NCBI GenBank assembly: GCA_039024555.1 | Contig: JBCCQQ010000006.1 | Coordinates: forward strand, 32,001 to 96,000 | DNA from: Cyanobacteria bacterium P01_D01_bin.156 | Lineage (GTDB): Bacteria; Cyanobacteriota; Cyanobacteriia; Phormidesmidales; Phormidesmidaceae | DNA: 64,000 nt | Reading direction: 5' to 3' | In this document: piece after piece, positions 38,226-50,240 of the stretch | Layout: each line of letters starts with the position of its first letter | How positions within the stretch are numbered: the first letter of the stretch is position 1 | Notes under the pieces: model-generated | Seen by the model: the letters and a program-made list of their open reading frames with translations, nothing else | Database searches by the model: none | Told to the model about the DNA's origin: nothing | Position numbers and translations under genes: made by a program

Positions 38226-40205
38226 ATGAACACTTTTCTAGCGCTTCTAGTCAATCAGATTGTTGGCACTTTGTTTCAAGATGCACCTGAAATTGAAGAC
38301 CTTGGTGATATCTTCATTGGTGGCAATGGAGATGATAATCTCATAGGAGGCGATCAGGATGATATCTTCCTTAGTCAAGATGGTGATGACACCATTCTAG
38401 GCGGTGCCGGAACCGATATTGTTTTTGCTGACAAAGGTAAGGATACCGTTGTTGGACAAACCGGGAATGACGTCGCTTTTTTGGGAGCAGGCAATGACCG
38501 CTTTATTTGGAATAACGGTGATGGTAGCGACTTCATCAATGGCGGCTCAGGCTACGATACAACCCAAGTAAACGGTGCTGACGGTCCTGGCGATCAGTTT
38601 GACCTCAGGGCAGAGAACGGACGGGCGCTCTTTAATCGCCTCAATTTGGGCCTGTTTACTCTGACTAACGAGAGTATCGAGAAATTTGAGATTAATGGCC
38701 AGGGAGGCGATGACTCGTTAACGGTTGGAGATTTAACCGATAGCGATGTCAAAAAAGTGGTCTTTTCTGGGGGAGATGGCAATGACACTCTAGATGCCCG
38801 TGAAAGCTCCACAAAAATTAAGGCTAAAGGGGGTAAAGGAGATGACCTACTACTGGGTGGCTCCGCTGAAGATATCTTTCTTGCCGGTTCTGGTAACGAT
38901 ATTGTCGTCGGTCAGCGAGGAAATGATAGGGCTAACCTAGGCAGAGGCAATGACCGTTTTATTTGGAACAACGGTGACGGCAGTGACGTTATCAATGGTG
39001 CAGCAGGCTACGATACAACTCAGGTAAATGGTGCCGATGCCGCTGGAGATGAGTTTGAGCTTAGCCAAGAAAATGGTCGAGCAATTTTCAATCGTCTGAA
39101 CCTGGGGCTGTTTACGCTGACTAACAAAAGTATTGAACAGTTTGAGATTAACGGCCAGGGTGGCGATGATTCTTTAGCAGTAGGCGACCTGACCGACAGT
39201 GGCGTGCAAAAAGTCATCTTCTCAGGTGGCGAAGGTAATGATACGTTAGATGCCCGAGAAAGCACCACGACGATTGAAGTCTTTGGTGGTGATGGCGATG
39301 ACCTACTACTGGGGGGCTCAGCTGAAGATACCTTTTTTGCTGGAGCTGGTAATGATATTGTTGTGGGCCAGCGCGGTAACGATACCGCAGACTTAGGGGA
39401 TGGTGACGACCGCTTTATCTGGAATAACGGTGACGGCAGCGACTTTATCAATGGTGCAGATGGGTTTGATGTGACCCAGGTGAATGGTGCCGATGGTCCT
39501 GGCGATGAGTTTGACCTAAGCCAGGTGGATGGTCAGGCTATTTTTAATCGTCTCAATCTAGGATTGTTTACCCTTACTAACGAGGGTATTGAACAGTTTG
39601 AGATCAATGGCCAGGGTGGGAATGATTCGCTTACCATCAACGATCTGACCGGTAGTGACGTCCAGTCCGTACTCTTCTCCGGCGGCGATGGCAATGATTT
39701 CTTAAATGCTAGCGGTACATTTACTCCAGTTACTGCTGATGGTGGCGATGGCAATGATATTCTCATCGGTGGTGCCGGTGACGATATTCTGATTGGTGGT
39801 AATGGGTCCGACTTACTCATTGGGGGTGCCGGTAACAACATTCTGATCGGTGGCAATGGGGCTGATTTCTTTGGCTTTGATACCGGTGCTGTCTTTGATG
39901 CCGATGATATTGGCACGAATCAGATCCAAAACTATGAAGCTATCGACACCATTGTGCTGGATCTTACTGTCTTTGCTCAGTTAACCAGTGCCGTGGGGGG
40001 TGCCCTATCTGCCAGTGAGTTTGCAGTGGTCAATAGCGCCGAAGAAGCGGCTCTCAGTGATGCTCTAATTATCTACGGTGCCGATACCGGAAACCTCTAC
40101 TACAACGCCAATGGTGGTGAAGAGGGCTTTGGTAACGGTGCTCACTTTGCCACCATTGAAGGTGCACCCACCTTGGATGCCAATAGCTTTGTTATTCAGG
40201 CGTAG
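38226..40205 (+). CDS. RTX-type calcium-binding secreted protein with ~152-aa internal repeats
   Basis: Many GGxGxD nonapeptides; DRFIWNNGDGSD recurs at 38496, 38952 and 39408 (456-bp period); cyanobacterial RTX C-terminus (G.LYYN.NG...GFG.G..FA). Confidence 0.9.
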   Translation: MNTFLALLVNQIVGTLFQDAPEIEDLGDIFIGGNGDDNLIGGDQDDIFLSQDGDDTILGGAGTDIVFADKGKDTVVGQTGNDVAFLGAGNDRFIWNNGDGSDFINGGSGYDTTQVNGADGPGDQFDLRAENGRALFNRLNLGLFTLTNESIEKFEINGQGGDDSLTVGDLTDSDVKKVVFSGGDGNDTLDARESSTKIKAKGGKGDDLLLGGSAEDIFLAGSGNDIVVGQRGNDRANLGRGNDRFIWNNGDGSDVINGAAGYDTTQVNGADAAGDEFELSQENGRAIFNRLNLGLFTLTNKSIEQFEINGQGGDDSLAVGDLTDSGVQKVIFSGGEGNDTLDARESTTTIEVFGGDGDDLLLGGSAEDTFFAGAGNDIVVGQRGNDTADLGDGDDRFIWNNGDGSDFINGADGFDVTQVNGADGPGDEFDLSQVDGQAIFNRLNLGLFTLTNEGIEQFEINGQGGNDSLTINDLTGSDVQSVLFSGGDGNDFLNASGTFTPVTADGGDGNDILIGGAGDDILIGGNGSDLLIGGAGNNILIGGNGADFFGFDTGAVFDADDIGTNQIQNYEAIDTIVLDLTVFAQLTSAVGGALSASEFAVVNSAEEAALSDALIIYGADTGNLYYNANGGEEGFGNGAHFATIEGAPTLDANSFVIQA

Positions 40206-41549: not shown

Positions 41550-43826
41550 ATGACCTCATCTGGTAAGCCTCAACCCAAGCAACCAGCCAGTGAGCAATTA
41601 GCAGACATGGTTCTTAAGGTGGTCAGAACTGGCGGGATTGCTGGTGGTGGCATTGGTGCGTTTTGGCAGCTGTTTCTAAATAGCGATATCCCAAAGGCAA
41701 TTGCATCATTGGTAATCGGTGCTGGCCTTTCCTATGGTGCTAAGTTGTTGATGCCCGTCCATAAAGGAAATGAGAAACGGGCGGAACAGGCTGGAAAAGC
41801 TATCAATGAAGGCATTGATCAAGTCTTTGACCAGATTACTAACCAGGTGATTGCGGCAGCAACTGGGTTTGAGAATAAGTACTTGCTGTGTCAGGCGGCA
41901 GAATGTCAGGCGTTTCGTTCTGAGGGCATGGCCCAGCATGATGGCATTTTTATTCCGCTATTGACGGAAGTATTTGTGCCGTTGGAGCTAGACTCTAGCG
42001 CTATGCAAGCAGGCTTTCACTCGCTAATGCTGGATAGAAATCAAACAAGCCAACGGGAGCTAACTATTTGGACCTTTTTAGCCCAGGCACAAAAGACACC
42101 CACATTTCGTCAGCTAGCCATTCTAGCTTGGGGTGGCTACGGTAAGACCACGCTGTTGCGGCACATTGCTTTTCGCTACGGCACTAAACAGATTCCTAAA
42201 GGAGCACCAAAGTTCATCCCTGTCCTACTGATCCTCAGACAGTATAAGGATTTACTCGCTCAGGATAATCCTCCTGACTTACCACAGTTCATCACTGACC
42301 ATCACCTACCAGATTTGCCCGGTGCCGATAATCTAAAACCACCCAAGGATTGGGCATTGAACCTTCTCAAAAGTGGTCGAGCATTGGTAATGTTGGACGG
42401 CTTTGATGAAGTTGGTACAGATCAGCGTTCAAACGTGGCTAAATGGTTAACGGCTCAAATGCGCCGCTATGGTCAGGCAGTCTTTTTGCTCACATCTCGT
42501 CCCAAAGCTTATAGAGAACAAAAAGCAGGCGCAAGGTTGCAGTTAAGTACATCCCTGTGGGTAAGAGACTTTAATGAGTTACAGAGAAAACAGTTTGTTA
42601 CCCGTTGGTATGAGTGCCAAGAACGTTATGCCAATGCTGGGCGAGAAACCCCAGATGTCAAAAAAACAGCAGATCGTGCATCCCAAAATTTACTTGCACA
42701 AATTGAATCTCAGCAGGCTCTGAAGGATTTGGCAAAAAATCCTTTGTTGCTCAATATGATTGTCACCTTCCATCGCCGGGTGCCAGGTGCGGAACTACCT
42801 AAGCGCAAGGTAGAACTGTATCGAGAAATTTGTCAGCTGCAGTTACTAGACCGCCCTAGAGCTCGTGGTGTAGGGCCTTTGATGACCCAGTACAATGCCC
42901 AGGGGATTTTGCAACAGATTGCCTTTGCCATGATGCAGCGCCAGTGGAAAAGGATTGACCAAAAGGTATTACTGCAAGGGTTAAGTCAAATTATTAAACA
43001 ACAAGACGATCAGTTTTCGGCTAAGGATTTTTTGAAGGAAGTGGTGCAAATTAGTGAGCTGCTAGTAAAGCAAGAAGACCAATATGAATTTGCTCACCTA
43101 AGTTTTCAAGAGTATTTAGCGGCGGCCCATATTGCCCAGACTAGAAAGGAACAGGTACTGTATTCGCAGTTTGACAATGATTGGTGGAAGCCAACAATTT
43201 TACTCTATGCGGGGATAGTAAGTCCAACACAGTTGATGCGAGAGGCCGTTAATCAGGGAGCAACGGATCTGGCTTATCAGTGTTTACAGGAGACGACGAA
43301 GCAGGTGGATGCCTCCCTGGCAGCTGAGCTGAAAACTGTTAAGGCAGTTGTAGTAGATGCTCGCTATGCGAACTTAGAAACGTATTTGAAAAATGGCGAG
43401 TGGGAAAAGGCAGATAATGAAACCTATCGACTGATGATCACTACCGTTGGCAAAGAAGAGAACCAGTTCTTTGAAAACGAAGAACTACTCGAATTTCCCT
43501 GTGAGGAGCTAAAGACTATTGATCAGTTGTGGGTCACCCACAGTAAGGGCAAGTATGGTTTTAGCATACAAAAGAAAATTTATTTAAGCGTTGGTGGTGT
43601 AGCCGATGGCACATATAATGATGAGGCCCATAAACAATTTTGCGATTTAGTGGCTTGGCGAAAGGACGGTTCTTACAGGTTCGAAGATATATTGATGGAT
43701 GGAAGGGGGCCTCACGGACATCTCCCTCGCCCGGTCGTTCCCAGGTTTTGGTTTATAGATCTTATGGGGGTGCTTGGGGGGGGGGTTTGGTTTTTTTTGT
43801 CTCTTCTCTCGCATCGAGACTTGTAG
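41550..43826 (+). CDS. NACHT NTPase with C-terminal GUN4 domain
   Basis: Walker A GGYGKTT, Walker B LDGFDE, LTSR, NPLLL, FAHLSFQEY; GUN4 motifs W..AD.ET, FPC..L.TID.LW...S.G.YGFS.QK and GHLP. Confidence 0.88.
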   Translation: MTSSGKPQPKQPASEQLADMVLKVVRTGGIAGGGIGAFWQLFLNSDIPKAIASLVIGAGLSYGAKLLMPVHKGNEKRAEQAGKAINEGIDQVFDQITNQVIAAATGFENKYLLCQAAECQAFRSEGMAQHDGIFIPLLTEVFVPLELDSSAMQAGFHSLMLDRNQTSQRELTIWTFLAQAQKTPTFRQLAILAWGGYGKTTLLRHIAFRYGTKQIPKGAPKFIPVLLILRQYKDLLAQDNPPDLPQFITDHHLPDLPGADNLKPPKDWALNLLKSGRALVMLDGFDEVGTDQRSNVAKWLTAQMRRYGQAVFLLTSRPKAYREQKAGARLQLSTSLWVRDFNELQRKQFVTRWYECQERYANAGRETPDVKKTADRASQNLLAQIESQQALKDLAKNPLLLNMIVTFHRRVPGAELPKRKVELYREICQLQLLDRPRARGVGPLMTQYNAQGILQQIAFAMMQRQWKRIDQKVLLQGLSQIIKQQDDQFSAKDFLKEVVQISELLVKQEDQYEFAHLSFQEYLAAAHIAQTRKEQVLYSQFDNDWWKPTILLYAGIVSPTQLMREAVNQGATDLAYQCLQETTKQVDASLAAELKTVKAVVVDARYANLETYLKNGEWEKADNETYRLMITTVGKEENQFFENEELLEFPCEELKTIDQLWVTHSKGKYGFSIQKKIYLSVGGVADGTYNDEAHKQFCDLVAWRKDGSYRFEDILMDGRGPHGHLPRPVVPRFWFIDLMGVLGGGVWFFLSLLSHRDL
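43766..43798 (+). repeat. Homopolymer cluster (G5, G10, T8) in the GUN4 C-terminal coding region
   Basis: G5 at 43766-43770, G10 at 43776-43785, T8 at 43791-43798. Confidence 0.85.
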
Positions 43827-43903
43827 ACTGTAACAGATAAGCGCTACAGCCCGATCTAAACTTTCTTAAACACAGTCTCTACATACCAATCCTCGTTGTT
43901 TCG

Positions 43904-44680
43904 TCAATTCGTTACCTGGTACCCTGCTAGCTCTCTTGCCAGGTCTGGGTTATAGGCATTGGCCATCAAAAAACGTTCCGTGATATTCTGAATTTCCTCC
44001 ATAGGAGCATCCCATTCTTGCCATAGAGATTTTTGACCAGGGCTAACTTTTTTCTTGGGCTTACCCTTCAATTTCATCCTTGCTAGCAATGTATTTCCCC
44101 AGTAATTTCGCTTTTCTGGCTTTGGCCTTGGTCGATACCGCTCACAAAATTTACGATATATCGTTGCACAGATTTCCAAGGTCGCTCCCAATGCCATAAA
44201 TGCCAGGTGCCATTCGGTAATACCATCCTGGGTCAACCGTTCATAGGTTCCATAATTGCTGAAATCATAGAAAAAGCCCTGCTGCATATTGGCAGCCTTT
44301 GGGTTCCCATGGATATAGCGAATCGTATTCAATGCTCTTCGAGTATCGCTCATCTCAAAGCCGCTGCTGTGATACCGCTTTTCCCAAAAGTGCCCTGTCC
44401 GGTTCAACATTCGGTTAAAACACATGGCACTATACCAGTTCAGCCAGTGCATAATTTTCGGTAACTCTTCTGGCTGCTGCGGCTTTAACAAATAATGGAC
44501 ATGATTGCTCATAATGCACAGAGCATAGAGCCTGAAACCATATTTTTCTCGGCACTTTTGAAGTGCATATAACAATACAGAACGACATTCATACCGCGTC
44601 AATCGAAACTCTCGATTATTGCATCGTATTGTTACGTGACAACAAAGATTAGGACGTAAGTCCCTCAGTTTACGGGCCAT
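43904..44680 (-). CDS. HUH Y1 transposase, RAYT-like (IS200 superfamily)
   Basis: MAR..R......HVTIRCNNR, CIMSNHVH (HUH), R.GHFW..RY and catalytic RYIH.NP. Confidence 0.87.
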   Translation of the reverse strand: MARKLRDLRPNLCCHVTIRCNNREFRLTRYECRSVLLYALQKCREKYGFRLYALCIMSNHVHYLLKPQQPEELPKIMHWLNWYSAMCFNRMLNRTGHFWEKRYHSSGFEMSDTRRALNTIRYIHGNPKAANMQQGFFYDFSNYGTYERLTQDGITEWHLAFMALGATLEICATIYRKFCERYRPRPKPEKRNYWGNTLLARMKLKGKPKKKVSPGQKSLWQEWDAPMEEIQNITERFLMANAYNPDLARELAGYQVTN

Positions 44681-44777
44681 TGAAAGAGCACATTGCTTTA
44701 CGCTCTGCTTGTTTCTATCATATAAATCCTAATGGTGACACTATCACCTGTCTACAACTTTGACATAAAGTAATTCA

Positions 44778-47700
44778 TCAAAGAAATGTTGCCTGTGTGC
44801 ATTTAAGACTCTCATTATTTTGAGGGAGTATGATTTCAAAATCTGTTGTTCCACTTTCTGCTGAATTCACAGTTAATGTGCCTGCATGTTTTCGAATAAT
44901 GGAATAGCTTACAAATAACCCAAGCCCTTTCCCCTGACCCACTGGTTTTGTTGTAAAGAAAGGCTCAAAGATTTGCTTCTGAAGTTGTTCTGGAATAACA
45001 CTGTTAGTATTGGAAATAATAATCTTCACTTTCCCAGACAAAGCCTGCTCAGTGCGAATCCGAATCTCAGGGGTATCGTCAACACAGGTATTTTCCCGAA
45101 TGGCATCGATTGCATTATTGATGATGTTCAAAAACACTTGGTTGAGCTGATTGGGGTAACACACAACTTTAGGTAATTGAGTATACTGCCGCGTAATTCT
45201 AATTTCCGGTTGCTCGCCTAATGCTTGTAGGCGGTTATTCAAAACTAAGAGGGTACTTTCAATTCCACTATGCAAATTAACAGCTTTAACAGCAGCCTGA
45301 TCTAATCGTGAGAAGTTTCGTAGACTTTGAACAATTTCGTTGATTCTTTCACTACCCACTTCAATAGAGTCCAAAATACTATTGATATCCAAAAATATAT
45401 CATCAGGTTCAATCGCGTTAATTTTTGACTGAAGAGATGGACTAGGTTGAGAATACTCATCCTGATAACTATGGAACAAATCCTGTAAATCTTTAATATA
45501 GTCTTGTAGATGAGGAACATTGCCCATAATAAATCCCACTGGATTATTGATTTCATGGGAAATTCCTGCAACTAGCTGTCCTAGTGATGACATCTTTTCA
45601 GCATGAATAAGATGGGCTTGAGTTTGCTGTAATGTTTGCAATGTTTGTTGCAGATCATTGGCTTTGCGATGAAGATCTTGGGTCTTTTGTTCAACTTCTT
45701 TTTCCAGTTTTTGAGAGTAGTTTTCTGCCTGCTGATATAAGCGGGCATTTTCAATAGAAATCGCTGCCTGACTTGCTAAAAATTGCAAGACTTCTACCCG
45801 TTCATCTGTGAATGCCCCCACCATCAAATTGTTTTCTAAATAGAGCACTCCAATCGTCTTATTCTGGAGTTTTACAGGTATACACAAAACCGACTTAGGT
45901 TTCTGGGTAAGAATATAAGGATCGGCGACAAACTGCTCATCGGCACTCAAGAATTCGAACACAGCTTTCTCTTGAGTCCGGATGACTGAGTAAACAAGAC
46001 GTTTGGGAAGACCTAAATAATGCTCTAAAGAAATATCTATTCGGTTTACCTGATTGGGGGTTGCTTCAACCACTACAGTCCATTGATTATTTTGATAAAG
46101 GAGCAAGTGACCAACTTGTGCTCCTGCATTTGCGATAACTAGATTCATCAAGGTTGTTAGCAATTTCCCAAATTCAATTTCCTGCGAAATTGCTTGCGCC
46201 GCATTTAAGATCGTTGGAATATCCAGTAAACTCTCAATTCCTTGCTTAATACTCAAAGTAGAGTAACCCTCACCTTGGTCTTTGCCCAGCAATTCTACTG
46301 AATAAAAATTTGTCTTCAAGAGATTGGGATAACGCTGTTCCAAGTGATTGAGTTTTGCTTTAGCCCCCCATCGTTTATAGCCATCATAAGCATCTTGTAG
46401 GTAGCCAACGGCCGCTTTTTTCTTGTCCCAATTCAAATAAAATCTGGCAGCTAGTTCATTCGCAAGAGCTTCTTCATAAAGACAATGCTGGGCTCTCGAC
46501 TGTGCGATCGCTTGCTCGTAAGAATCAATAGCGTCAGCATACTGACCAGACAACTTTAATTTCTCTGCTTGAACTAGCAAACATTTATGAGATATATTCT
46601 CAGGGCAGTCTTGCTCCCACTCCTTCAATTTTTTCTCTAGGAGCAAAACTTCTTGCCAATGAGATTTTCGTACCTCTTTATTGTTAGAGACTTCGAAAAT
46701 TGACAAATGCATTAATGCCGCATAGAAAACACTAGAAGGAACCTTTGCATGGCTAGGAATTGTATCCTCAATAATGCTTAACTTAGAAATTAAATCTGCA
46801 TATATGTCCTGCTGGTCAAAGAGGTAGGCATGGCGAATTTTAACAGAATAGAACCAAGCTAGATGATAAGGACTATTGTCATATTTGTGGCAGAAGCTGG
46901 CTTCGTTAAAACTTGTATCATCAAAGCTCTCGACTGTTGTTGTCAGTCCCAGTAAATGGCGAATGGGTTGAATAACACCCACAATCAAAGCATCGCGATT
47001 TTCTAGGCTTTTGATGCGATATAGAAAATCTGAATGGGCTTGAGCTGTTTGATATAACTCCTCCAAGTTTTGACCGTATGTTAATCGGTCCGAACTACTT
47101 AGCATCATTGTAAAGCTCACTGTTAGCCAGTTTCCAGCTTGCATCCCTTGCCTGAGGGCCTCTTCATAGTACACATCCGCTTCTTTAAGAGGGCGGCTCC
47201 AGCTATGAACATCGGCTGCGAATAAGAAATTGGTCATGCCACAAATGTCGGCATTATCAAACTGATCACAAAGGGCAACAGCCGTAGCACCAAAGTGATA
47301 CGCCATAGCAGCATTTCCAAGAAGTGTATTGGCAATTAACCCAAAGCCAACATAGCCAAAGGGAGACATATCACTGTTGCCATGCTGCAGTGATATGGTC
47401 GTCATTTTTGCTAGGGCAAGATACGCTAACTTTGATTGACCATCTAACCATGCTGCATAGAAAAGAACCTGCAAAATGCGTAGCATTTCTGCCACATTCT
47501 CATTCTGCATGATAGGCAAATCAATAATCGATTGGATTGAATTGTGGTTTAGAAAATGTACAACAGCTTCAATCTCACACTTTAACGCTGCATCTAAGTC
47601 AATATCATTTTTGGGTACCGGCCATCCCAATAGTTCAAGACTTTGACGCTGAATAGCAATGGCTTCCTTATTTCTTCCCTGAAGCTGATATTGAGTCATC

Positions 47701-50240
47701 TGCACTCGGTAAATCATGGCTTTGTCGAGTGCCGTTTGCGAATGATCAATAGCTAAAGCATATAGGGTTTCTGCTTGCTCAAAATTGCCACAAAGATAGG
47801 TAGCTTCAGCACCGGCATAATGCAATTGGAACATCAGAGAGTAATCAGTTTGCCAAACCTTTTCAGACAAACAATCAATACCCATAGAGTAATATTGCGC
47901 CGCTACTTCATAGGCGGATGAGGCCTTAGCCTTTTGGCCAGCTTGTAAATTGAGCTTCGCTACCGCTAGCGTCTCTTGAGGAGAAGAAATGAAATTTCGA
48001 CCTAGATTAAACTGATTGACAATAGAAAATAATTGTTCTTCTTTCTGCCTTTGAGAAAACCCTTGTAACAGCAATCGACCAATTTGAAGATGAGTACTTT
48101 GCTTTTGATTATCTGGAATCAATGTGTAGGCAGCTTGTTGAATCCGGTCATGTAAAAATCGGTATCGAATAGCACCATATTCGCCATCGCTTGTGTCATT
48201 TCCCTCCAGATAAAATGCATGTGACGAAGAGTCAGAAAGAATAAACCCCTCTTGAAGACTAATCCATAGTTTCTGGTTGACCGATTCCAGAGCCTCTTCA
48301 CAAATAATCGCTAATGTCTCTAAATCAAAATTGTTACCGATGCAGGCAGATAACTTGAGAACAGTCTGTGTGTCTTGCGGTAGTTTTTGTAAACGACTTA
48401 CCATAAACTGAACGACATTATCCGTCAGAGATAACTGTTGAACAGCACTAAGATCGCACTGCCAACACCTCATATCGCTATTAAAATAAATATTGTTGTC
48501 TCTATGTAAGCCTTTGATAAATTGAATAGTAAAGAAAGGATTTCCCTTTGTCTTACGATGAATTAGCTCAGATAAAGACACTGAGACTGCCGATGGACAC
48601 ATCATCGTATCAGTAATCAAATCAGTAATGTCTCCCTTCGTCAAAAGAGATAACATCATCGTATGAATGACTTTGCCATCTTCTCTCAGGGTATCTAATA
48701 GCCTAATCAAAGGATGGGCAGGATACACCTCGTTATCCCGATAGGCTCCTAATAATAAGAGATACCCCGCTTCTGATTCATCCATAAGAAGCTGAATCAA
48801 ACTCAATGATGCAGAATCTGCCCATTGTAGGTCATCTAAAAAGATAACGAGAGGATGCTCCTTCTTTGTGAAAAGCCTGACAAACTTGCCAAATAATAAA
48901 TTGAATCGATTCTGTTCTGCACCACCGGACAGTTTTATCGTAGGGGGCTGAGGGCCGACGATACATTCTAATTCGGGAATAACATCCGTAATAACTTGCC
49001 CACTATCTCCTAATGCAGATAATATTTTTGTTCTCCAGTGGGTTAGTTCTGCCTCCGATTCCCCAATTAATTGTTCGATCAATCCACGAAATGCCTGTAC
49101 AAATGCAGAGAAAGGTCTATCTTTGTGGAATTGATCAAATTTCCCCTGAATAAAATATCCTTTTTGTCGAGTAATCGGTTTATGAACTTCATTAATAACC
49201 GTTGTTTTACCAATGCCAGAACATCCTGACACCAACATAATTTCTGAGTTACCTTGGGTAACTCGATCAAACGTATTCAATAGACATTGCACTTCTAATT
49301 CTCGGCCATAAAGCTTCTCAGAAATCAAAAAACGATTGCTGATATCTTCTTGTCCAATCTCAAATGGTTCAATCTTTTGAGTTGTCTGAACCTGATGCAA
49401 GCAATTCTCTAAATCATATTTAAGCCCTAAACTACTCTGGTAACGATCTTCCGCATTCTTCGCCATCAGCTTATGAACAATTTGCGAAACGATCGGCGGG
49501 ATGGATTCATTGATATGGTGCAGCGGTTTGGGGATTTGGGCCAAATGACAATGCACTAGTTCTAAGGGAACCATCGATAAGAAGGGAAGTCTGCCCGTAG
49601 CTAATTCATAGAGGGTAACTCCAAGACTATAAAAATCAGTACGATAGTCGATTCCCCTGTTCATTCGTCCAGTTTGTTCTGGAGCTAAATAGGATAGAGT
49701 CCCTTCTAAACTGTTGGGCTTATTTAAGGCTTGCAATTCATAAGATAATAATGAGGCCATACCAAAATCAATGAGCCTGACTTGCTTAGATTGAGGATGG
49801 ATAATGATATTCCCAGGATTAATATTTTTATGAATGATTCGGCATTGATATAAATTATGTAAAATTTCTGAAAGCTGGATAGCAATCTTCAAAGTATCGA
49901 CAAGGGATAAAGAGAATTGCTTCACATAGTCTCTTAGAGCAATACTATTGTAATCTTCCATCACCAAGGCATAACTATTTTCACGTAGCTCAAGGCTAGC
50001 GGCATGAACAATACCAGGAATGAGAAGATTCTTGGTGATCTTATATTCGTTTCGTAATAGCTGCTGTTGTCTAAGGGTTAGATATTCGTCACGCAATAAC
50101 TTAATGACAACAGTTCGGCCCTGACTCTCTTGAATAGCCTGATAAACAATTATTTTTGGGCTACTGTAAAGAGGCTTAGTAGGTGTATATCCAGATAGTT
50201 GAGGCAAGCTATTGTGTTGATAACTGGGAAGCAAGGCCAT
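44778..50240 (-). CDS. Multisensor Ser/Thr kinase-like / AAA ATPase / GAF / histidine kinase (HstK-type)
   Basis: Kinase domain (DFG, YLAPEQTGRMN), GCSGIGKT, LDDLQWAD, GNPFF, FLHDRIQQAAY, GAF (LYLENN) and SHEINNP. Confidence 0.93.
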   Translation of the reverse strand: MALLPSYQHNSLPQLSGYTPTKPLYSSPKIIVYQAIQESQGRTVVIKLLRDEYLTLRQQQLLRNEYKITKNLLIPGIVHAASLELRENSYALVMEDYNSIALRDYVKQFSLSLVDTLKIAIQLSEILHNLYQCRIIHKNINPGNIIIHPQSKQVRLIDFGMASLLSYELQALNKPNSLEGTLSYLAPEQTGRMNRGIDYRTDFYSLGVTLYELATGRLPFLSMVPLELVHCHLAQIPKPLHHINESIPPIVSQIVHKLMAKNAEDRYQSSLGLKYDLENCLHQVQTTQKIEPFEIGQEDISNRFLISEKLYGRELEVQCLLNTFDRVTQGNSEIMLVSGCSGIGKTTVINEVHKPITRQKGYFIQGKFDQFHKDRPFSAFVQAFRGLIEQLIGESEAELTHWRTKILSALGDSGQVITDVIPELECIVGPQPPTIKLSGGAEQNRFNLLFGKFVRLFTKKEHPLVIFLDDLQWADSASLSLIQLLMDESEAGYLLLLGAYRDNEVYPAHPLIRLLDTLREDGKVIHTMMLSLLTKGDITDLITDTMMCPSAVSVSLSELIHRKTKGNPFFTIQFIKGLHRDNNIYFNSDMRCWQCDLSAVQQLSLTDNVVQFMVSRLQKLPQDTQTVLKLSACIGNNFDLETLAIICEEALESVNQKLWISLQEGFILSDSSSHAFYLEGNDTSDGEYGAIRYRFLHDRIQQAAYTLIPDNQKQSTHLQIGRLLLQGFSQRQKEEQLFSIVNQFNLGRNFISSPQETLAVAKLNLQAGQKAKASSAYEVAAQYYSMGIDCLSEKVWQTDYSLMFQLHYAGAEATYLCGNFEQAETLYALAIDHSQTALDKAMIYRVQMTQYQLQGRNKEAIAIQRQSLELLGWPVPKNDIDLDAALKCEIEAVVHFLNHNSIQSIIDLPIMQNENVAEMLRILQVLFYAAWLDGQSKLAYLALAKMTTISLQHGNSDMSPFGYVGFGLIANTLLGNAAMAYHFGATAVALCDQFDNADICGMTNFLFAADVHSWSRPLKEADVYYEEALRQGMQAGNWLTVSFTMMLSSSDRLTYGQNLEELYQTAQAHSDFLYRIKSLENRDALIVGVIQPIRHLLGLTTTVESFDDTSFNEASFCHKYDNSPYHLAWFYSVKIRHAYLFDQQDIYADLISKLSIIEDTIPSHAKVPSSVFYAALMHLSIFEVSNNKEVRKSHWQEVLLLEKKLKEWEQDCPENISHKCLLVQAEKLKLSGQYADAIDSYEQAIAQSRAQHCLYEEALANELAARFYLNWDKKKAAVGYLQDAYDGYKRWGAKAKLNHLEQRYPNLLKTNFYSVELLGKDQGEGYSTLSIKQGIESLLDIPTILNAAQAISQEIEFGKLLTTLMNLVIANAGAQVGHLLLYQNNQWTVVVEATPNQVNRIDISLEHYLGLPKRLVYSVIRTQEKAVFEFLSADEQFVADPYILTQKPKSVLCIPVKLQNKTIGVLYLENNLMVGAFTDERVEVLQFLASQAAISIENARLYQQAENYSQKLEKEVEQKTQDLHRKANDLQQTLQTLQQTQAHLIHAEKMSSLGQLVAGISHEINNPVGFIMGNVPHLQDYIKDLQDLFHSYQDEYSQPSPSLQSKINAIEPDDIFLDINSILDSIEVGSERINEIVQSLRNFSRLDQAAVKAVNLHSGIESTLLVLNNRLQALGEQPEIRITRQYTQLPKVVCYPNQLNQVFLNIINNAIDAIRENTCVDDTPEIRIRTEQALSGKVKIIISNTNSVIPEQLQKQIFEPFFTTKPVGQGKGLGLFVSYSIIRKHAGTLTVNSAESGTTDFEIILPQNNESLKCTQATFL

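Follow-up and report, generated by a model that had tools for sequence, protein, structure and literature searches.

What rewrites the end of a sensor gene, and is the enzyme encoded next to it responsible? This question is raised by a locus in a stretch of 64,000 nucleotides (nt) from Cyanobacteria bacterium P01_D01_bin.156 (contig JBCCQQ010000006.1; the whole stretch is called the window here), where a gene for a NACHT NTPase with a GUN4-like domain meets, tail-to-tail, a gene for a Y1 HUH nuclease. The loop that follows the conserved GUN4 core is replaced wholesale between near-identical genes. Judged from sequence comparison, it is somewhat more probable than not that this rewriting is untemplated and driven by the resident HUH enzyme. 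The locus is built as follows.

41550..43826, plus strand: target gene for a NACHT NTPase with a C-terminal GUN4-like domain, 758 amino acids (aa) (Pfam NACHT at residues 196-354, GUN4 at 603-727)
43716..43727, plus strand: GHLP anchor, the final conserved residues of the GUN4 core and 5' border of the loop (by alignment to GUN4 1Z3X)
43728..43799, plus strand: hypervariable G/T-rich loop, 72 nt, G28 T29 C10 A5 (57/72 G+T)
43800..43840, plus strand: constant tail, which ends the protein in any frame (all three frames are in use)
43800..43923, no strand assigned: fixed-length cis element of about 124 nt, made up of tail, linker and box (box spacing conserved)
43911..43923, no strand assigned: conserved pseudo-palindromic box of the TACCTGGCAC type (core positions 90-99% conserved)
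43904..44680, minus strand: Y1 HUH nuclease gene, 258 aa, with a C-terminal extension of about 130 aa (Pfam Y1_Tnp, motifs)

Replacement of the loop is seen most directly where the rest of the gene has hardly changed. The proteins P0232, P0284, P0285 and P0286, identical up to GHLP at 730/731, 708/708 and 707/708 residues, carry four different loops in three frames. The loop of P0284 is also that of L034, a locus facing a full HUH gene, and two of the four loops have a few residues in common, so that change need not always be total. At the loci L193 and L200 the flanks are identical at 229/230 and 304/304 positions and the loops are unrelated, and in genome G117 two HUH-GUN4 copies and a plasmid copy, whose tail and HUH gene are 99% identical (each against the plasmid), have three unrelated loops. 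Where both flanks agree to at least 90% (31 pairs, many of them possibly paralogues), 28 pairs have unrelated loops, three have the same loop and none is intermediate. The three paralogues in the genome of the window also have unrelated loops, and among ten protein clusters a single loop is kept throughout clusters 3, 7 and 9. Two real pairs share the 5' part of the loop (44 and 51 nt), both with different downstream flanks, and no convincing 3'-sharing pair was found; a polarity of loop change is weakly suggested.

The composition of the loops points to how they may arise. The loop could be delimited in 64 of 74 loci (five without a recognisable tail, three without the motif and two with N were excluded) and measures 20-115 nt from the end of the GHLP codons to the start of the constant tail. 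Its base composition (G46 T32 A12 C10 over the 64 loops) is equal at codon positions 1, 2 and 3, unlike that of the GUN4 body, and only two in-frame stops occur, whereas the other frames contain 32 and 36 and shuffles 37.3±5.7. In-frame stops are likewise few in the 287 distinct loops from all loci, eight of which contain an in-frame stop, against 130 and 147 in the other frames. A composition blind to codon position, combined with stops purged in frame, is the pattern expected from generation at the nucleotide level followed by filtering at the protein level. The skew of the window loop is matched by only 16 of the 91,858 72-nt tiles of its genome, in which its longest match elsewhere is 14 nt (13-18 in shuffles). 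Loops are further rich in runs and self-repeats (33/287 vs 8 expected). The start of the loop's own tail is repeated directly within it in 12/287 (0.2 expected), and the GHLP codons are so repeated in 14/287 (0.6 expected, some being duplications of the motif itself); reverse copies of either occur at chance level only. An excess of direct copies, with reverse copies at chance, points to slip-prone synthesis started at the junction, and snap-back templating is thereby ruled out. A short telomerase-like template was likewise discarded, the enrichment of runs and TGG being only mild. A minority of loops (L344, L328, L334, L351, L352) are A/C-rich or ordinary on the sense strand and could be old, inverted or captured.

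Downstream of the loop, the composition changes sharply at the 5' edge of the tail. The tail reads ..SLLSHRDL*, ..LFSRIETCRL* or ..SSLASRLVDCNR* depending on the frame, and the three frames are used by 85, 98 and 104 of the 287 loops. Its stops in the window are TAG at 43824-43826, TAA at 43831-43833 and TAA at 43838-43840. Tail start points are discrete, with T favoured and a CT-rich edge (155 TCTC, 27 CTC, 77 TC, 4 C and 24 none in the 287 loops), and the 5' edge at 43800-43804 may be the cut and join point. The box follows the tail anchor by 109 or 110 nt in 165 of 175 box-bearing loci, the remaining 112 of the 287 loci being without a box or cut short, and it is a candidate recognition site of the HUH enzyme. 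In the window it overlaps the HUH stop region and the last HUH codons. The first-pass annotation of this DNA had taken 43841-43903 for a free spacer, which is instead the middle of the fixed-length element 43800-43923; its placing of the HUH end 63 nt past the last of the three stops agrees with the coordinates.

A structured RNA or single-stranded DNA hairpin was considered for the element and ruled out, because its folding is unremarkable (mean z -0.02 and -0.38 by strand over 40 elements, no covarying stem), no Rfam family matches it and the inner pairs of a 5-bp terminal stem are broken in about 25% of the 287. Conservation in the element has no significant helical periodicity (P=0.31); the rare box spacings of 99 and 120 lie about one turn off 109. 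A metagenome scan for the exact 42-nt tail gave no match. At L381 (G169:C1 near 1963700) the box is altered, the tail is gone and little of the linker is left; a G/T-rich loop with an internal tandem repeat extends nearly as far as the box, which looks as though rewriting had consumed part of the element. The box is inverted at its usual position in L059 and L090, and L386 and L248 (G117) have a variant tail, ..IFPPVKTCRV*, with junction point and box unchanged.

The pairing of the enzyme with GUN4 genes is as regular as the element between them. A species-genome scan returned 408 HUH relatives, and the neighbourhood results rest on the best 80, of which 75 have at least 600 nt downstream and are testable; these relatives are kin, not independent draws. 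In 74 of the 75 a GUN4 domain gene faces the HUH gene tail-to-tail (L072 is the exception). Three full HUH copies are present in the genome of the window, the other copies being 66-82% identical to the window's, and each lies tail-to-tail with a NACHT-GUN4 gene. The two-part target-plus-HUH architecture proposed in the first-pass annotation, and the convergent linkage it had suggested looking for, are thus strongly supported; the random contexts and identical IS200-like multiple copies that it had named as contrary outcomes were not found. No third conserved gene occurs among the 80 loci (the biggest other neighbour cluster comprises 9/80), and no conserved stretch was seen in the 130 nt preceding the HUH gene (79 loci). 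A GGTGA-N5-TCACC hairpin had also been pointed out; it is present at 44734-44748 but absent from 79/79 relatives and was therefore ruled out as a part of the system.

The genome of the window holds two further GUN4 genes of note: one (on C121) is without a tail, and a TIR-like one (G000:C60:224-1024) has kept tail and box with the HUH gene reduced to its end. At the latter, a shorter, different Y1/RAYT-like gene with a REP-like palindrome (REP, repetitive extragenic palindrome) occupies the place of the missing HUH part, and a gene similar to it lies upstream of the HUH gene in 4/80 loci (L003, L036, L071, L079).

The assignment of the HUH protein is based on motifs, profiles and fold. As annotated at first, the open reading frame is intact, with NHVH at residues 59-62 and RYIHGNP at 121-127, and Pfam Y1_Tnp matches it (E 6.7e-18); the NCBIfam model REP_Tyr_transpos reaches 61.3 bits, under its cut-off of 80. 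In 45 aligned HUH proteins H60 and H62 are invariant and Y122 is present in at least 90%. According to Table 1 of PMC6006769, subclass 2.1 of TnpA-Y1 is marked by NHVH, W[EQ], YIHxNP, a Ser after the core, about 240 aa, a C-terminal extension and no REPs. By motif comparison, the protein has N59/H60/H62, W99-E100, Y122-I-H-x-N-P, S141, the length and the C-terminal extension, and its motifs and length fit an enzyme of TnpA-REP subclass 2.1, or RAYT group 1 type. The closest fold to its predicted structure is TnpA-REP 4ER8 of E. coli; the PDB contained no sequence match to the HUH profile, and Thg1 fold matches of the model (E~1e-3) are read as a common RRM/palm fold only. By profile search the family is compact, with 100 representatives, most of them fragments, at E<=1e-30; relatives are absent from the viral contigs searched.

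Membership in three known groups was considered and rejected. IS200/IS605 elements carry a hairpin at either end and a Y---Q motif, occur as near-identical copies at various sites and often include tnpB. Here, there is no left end, paralogues are 66-82% identical, the context is single and the IS200 model gives 22.7 bits vs a cut-off of 55. Since the neighbours on either side of the HUH gene are the NACHT-GUN4 gene and an AAA/kinase gene, tnpB is not adjacent, as had been noted at first. For TIRYT, the GGGGWSAS terminal inverted repeats are not found on both sides and upstream conservation is lacking in 79 loci; the box, single and downstream only, loosely resembles the consensus. REPtrons are flanked by GT[AG]G-tagged hairpins, and in 74/80 loci such hairpins are missing from the 300 nt next to the gene. 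REPtrons (E. coli TnpA-REP, 4ER8) and TIRtrons/TIRYT do resemble the present enzyme in the HUH/Y core and fold and in being domesticated and of low copy number (described in PMC3733652, PMC6006769 and PMC8266576), but here one downstream box is tied to a coding target, with no GTAG-tagged hairpins and no paired terminal repeats.

On the target side, the GHLP of the window protein aligns to that of the solved GUN4 1Z3X, whose structure the core matches up to this motif, and P126 is invariant in 23 target domains. By inferred numbering, the proline that corresponds to SynGUN4 Pro208 comes just before the loop, and the loop takes the place of the segment with Leu210, Arg214 and Arg217, which are described as lining the porphyrin pocket of SynGUN4 (PMC1084334). 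Because the loop replaces this pocket segment, its product is likely a variable ligand site on conflict-type sensors. The model of the GUN4 domain has a pLDDT below 50 from residue 112 on and is uninformative for the loop. Read from its domains, the target gene would function as an immune or signalling sensor, and the N-terminal domains of 18 scanned GUN4 partners are NACHT, caspase, TIR, kinase, trypsin or none. The GUN4 gene of the plasmid copy mentioned above has a MoxR ATPase gene as its neighbour, an arrangement also known from vWA-MoxR conflict systems.

A mechanism can be proposed from these observations. The HUH enzyme would bind the fixed-length element behind the GUN4-domain gene at the box and nick the edge of the constant tail, on either of two candidate strands; the loop would be refilled with untemplated, slip-prone DNA and then rejoined. 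In the slightly favoured version, the cut falls on the HUH-coding strand right after ...GAGA and leaves a 3'-OH on the element. This geometry resembles that of the IS200/IS605 right end. C/A-rich DNA added to this 3'-OH would then pair again within the previous G/T-rich loop. Such a course of events would account for the halt at the C-rich GHLP codons and for the two pairs whose loops agree in their 5' part only. Alternatively, a C^T cut on the GUN4 strand would leave the tail held, and protected, on the tyrosine, and the free end would be trimmed, extended and rejoined. Known relatives are described as cutting single-stranded DNA at short sites, often CT, with the tyrosine holding the 5' end (PMC8266576); in REPtrons a tetranucleotide guides the cut at CT. 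The probability given above to enzyme-driven rewriting is shared about three to two between the cut on the HUH strand and that on the GUN4 strand. As no partner gene is conserved among the loci and no reverse transcriptase (RT) was found in this genome, the polymerase is probably a host enzyme. An A/C preference of Abi polymerases, looked for in one paper, was not found there and forms no part of the proposal. Selection would act on the product, a randomised lid over the ligand pocket of GUN4 in NACHT, caspase, TIR and kinase sensors, and tails left without the enzyme would retain their last loop.

Whether the variation depends on the enzyme was approached by comparing protein clusters of 10 HUH-adjacent and 10 orphan genes, of which two and four clusters, respectively, have more than one member; one of the four orphan clusters had no second member reaching the loop, leaving three informative. 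A HUH-adjacent Limnothrix gene shows five loops among six members. The three informative orphan genes have the same loop in 7/7, 2/2 and 3/3 full-length cluster members, and a profile search of their source genomes (one per cluster) found no full HUH-family member and at most C-terminal remnants. A picture of orphan tails as fossils that keep their last loop fits this small sample. The first-pass annotation had suggested that the HUH enzyme drives variation of the GUN4 C-terminus: the hypervariable, random-looking loop stands, and that the enzyme cuts there and causes the change is an inference, supported by loops that vary next to HUH genes, loops that stay the same in lineages without the enzyme, and the sister clade described below.

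Several observations weigh against this role. The HUH-adjacent Aetokthonos pair P0305/P0306 differs in one residue and is otherwise unchanged, and in the frozen orphan clusters the 60 residues leading up to the loop are identical at 59-60/60, so that recent shared descent could explain the frozen loops. In a survey of 301 genomes the tail pattern occurs in 66 and the HUH enzyme in 32, of which three belong to the sister clade. A GUN4 domain precedes 121 of the 128 tail loci, and 75 of the 128 lie in HUH-less genomes with loops that are as G/T-rich (median 0.74 vs 0.72, P=0.91); genomes with and without the enzyme cannot be told apart by the composition of their loops. In metagenomes, 45/61 tails are without an adjacent HUH gene. 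The differing pairs L119/L179 and L115/L116 have only a HUH remnant or none nearby, and the flanks of the differing pair L193/L200 are readable to 330 nt. The contigs of the likely source run contain no alternative loop, although contigs drop rare variants, and a polymerase site is not recognisable in the HUH fold or alignment.

These points bear on the explanation that the HUH enzyme is a bystander or former partner and that a host process, such as replication slippage, G-quadruplex-linked instability, end-joining repair or exposed-strand deamination, rewrites a loop that the tail makes tolerable, with selection keeping the frames open. It would account for the 63 loci of HUH-less genomes that have G/T-rich loops, for differing pairs without an adjacent intact HUH gene and for the richness in runs and self-repeats (33/287 vs 8 expected), and the authors who had proposed a causal enzyme for the procA genes of the sister clade are recorded as withdrawing that claim (bioRxiv 10.1101/2020.03.09.984088). 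However, it leaves the linkage in 74/75 relatives, the fixed spacing of 109/110 nt and the box at non-GUN4 targets unexplained; change is all-or-none in the 31 matched pairs and not a graded drift, and loops are unchanged where the enzyme is missing. We consider this explanation unlikely.

A mobile 3'-end cassette is improbable as well. Here, tail and HUH gene would move in a peel-and-paste-like manner to the ends of GUN4 genes, each arrival leaving a random junction and the three-frame tail sparing the host gene. Between G117 and the plasmid, tail and HUH gene are 99% identical over about 890 nt where the GUN4 bodies are only 83-91% alike, the identical block stops about 16 nt upstream of the HUH start, and many tails retain only a HUH C-terminal remnant, all of which would suit such a cassette. 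Against it, no conserved left end or hairpin exists (0/79), paralogues in this genome are merely 66-82% identical, no copies were found among the viral contigs searched and the four loops on one 99.9%-identical gene would require four separate arrivals.

A templated origin, whether by a diversity-generating retroelement (DGR) or another RT that uses a distant template, or by gene conversion out of silent cassettes, appears very unlikely and is, on the sequence comparisons, largely refuted. The targets do match reported cyanobacterial DGR targets in N-terminal domains and C-terminal position (PMC7517822, PMC7159879), some RT occurs in 24/30 genomes searched, and loops are A-poor. RVT_1 (PF00078), however, was not found in this 99% complete draft genome nor in five others with the HUH family, and no stretch elsewhere in this genome matches any of its four loops beyond shuffle length and could thus serve as template. 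Moreover, length (20-115 nt) and frame vary and C is also depleted, whereas DGR change is adenine-specific and keeps length. Some assemblies do break off or contain gaps within the loop (an N-run at L055, a contig end at L070, the contigs of the likely source run parting at 43789). A sequencing or assembly artefact (poly-G, low complexity) can nevertheless be dismissed, because stop purging is frame-specific, and loops are also found in single-contig genomes and, identically, in separate assemblies.

The breaks themselves are worth recording. At L055 an assembly N-gap lies exactly over the loop, and contigs end inside the loop at L070, L163, L196 and L206, as might be expected if the loop varies within the population. 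The contigs of the likely source run part within a G run, and one contig from another run reads tail, 23 nt of G/T-rich sequence, tail.

A sister clade of the HUH family extends the question beyond GUN4. Its members, at 44-48% identity (43-44% in the alignment of HUH proteins), occur in three small genomes of family f2, with up to eight matches each. The same box lies downstream in 13 of the 17 sister-clade loci examined, the other four having truncated or broken HUH genes, and the enzymes face Nif11-leader precursors or a signal-peptide protein family and not GUN4 genes. That family is multicopy (G319, L232-L239; G228, L241, L242 and L246; G037, L097), has RDVRVHD followed by a variable, mostly Cys-containing tail and gave no Pfam match in the two members scanned; it is likely a second target class besides the Nif11 precursors, and possibly a surface-displayed peptide library. 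In a tree built with a quick method (L117 and L383 dropped as short; four rows labelled GUN4-type have broken or missing partners), the GUN4-type and sister clades join at 100 against three distant Y1 proteins, the order between the two clades not being given. The variable tails of the sister clade have an even base composition (12 tails), which counts against a shared mode of action, as one mechanism may not cover both clades.

In marine picocyanobacteria, TnpA-REP faces prochlorosin (procA) genes, and diversification by the enzyme was proposed by Laurenceau et al. (bioRxiv 10.1101/2020.03.09.984088), who later saw no strong evidence for or against causality and withdrew the claim. The main text of that preprint places relatives in other cyanobacteria away from lanthipeptide genes and does not name GUN4. 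From subclass, orientation and Nif11 partners, the sister clade would be the clade of Laurenceau et al. In both systems a subclass 2.1 / RAYT group 1 enzyme faces its partner tail-to-tail (74/75 here), the DNA between the genes is conserved in sequence and length, only the C-terminal part of the partner varies, and C-terminal fragments of the enzyme are left over. They differ in that the partner here is of the NACHT-GUN4 sensor type, with Nif11 partners in the sister clade only, that the loop is G/T-rich, codon-blind, replaced wholesale and followed by a three-frame coding tail, and that their intergenic hairpin is opposed by an element without a fold (mean z -0.02/-0.38, 40 elements). Taken together, the domesticated Y1 HUH family might be a template-free, RT-free diversity generator that places random DNA in the ligand loop of GUN4 immune sensors by a nick at a fixed distance from the box, with a three-frame tail absorbing insertions and deletions, and whose same-box sister branch diversifies prochlorosin cores and a second secreted-protein family. 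We put this wider claim forward tentatively, as somewhat short of an even chance.

Among other diversifying systems, cyanobacterial DGRs with FGS/CLec targets come close in that a hypervariable C-terminal segment of a ligand-binding domain sits on NACHT, caspase, TIR and kinase proteins, a constant 3' element adjoins the variable segment and remote targets lack the enzyme. Unlike DGRs, there is neither an RT nor a template repeat here, length and frame change, and A and C are both depleted. DGR-varied FGS domains are reported to occupy the matching C-terminal position on similar proteins (PMC7159879, PMC7517822). Two neighbours of the locus may be mentioned in passing: window positions 44778-50240 encode an 1820-aa kinase/AAA/GAF/histidine-kinase hybrid on the same strand directly upstream of the HUH gene, which is not a conserved neighbour, and 38226-40205 encode a 659-aa protein with three internal 456-nt repeats and glycine-rich nonapeptide-like repeats, by appearance of the secreted calcium-binding type and ordinary. 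In V(D)J junctional diversity, the transposase-derived nuclease RAG and the N-regions added by terminal deoxynucleotidyl transferase (TdT) produce random junctions of variable length in a ligand-binding loop. The present system is alike, by analogy only, in a transposase-derived nuclease, a random junction of variable length and selection for an open frame; it differs in that the enzyme is unrelated, gene segments are absent, the change is heritable in bacteria and the frame problem is met by a three-frame tail.

A literature search (few subscription journals; preprint main text only) returned nothing on a GUN4-HUH pair or random G/T loops. The system is real, and its kind has so far been known only as an unproven association; what is new are the rewriting at strain level, the fixed spacing with its box, the contrast between variable and frozen loops, and the link to the prochlorosin clade. 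To our knowledge, the known bacterial targeted diversifiers (DGRs, invertases, gene conversion, integrons) work by copying or shuffling sequence that is already there. The variable sequence described here looks newly written and random, unlike their products, and if enzyme-driven untemplated rewriting is true, the mechanism would be categorically new. A RAYT-type enzyme would gain a concrete host function that can be tested, and the question of prochlorosin diversity would receive independent support together with a defined cis box, as one enzyme family faces three unrelated targets with variable ends. If one protein and an element of about 124 nt suffice, they may serve as a compact means of randomising, in vivo, a protein loop of choice. 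For the cyanobacteria themselves, the finding suggests that many multidomain GUN4 proteins may be variable receptors and not chlorophyll regulators.

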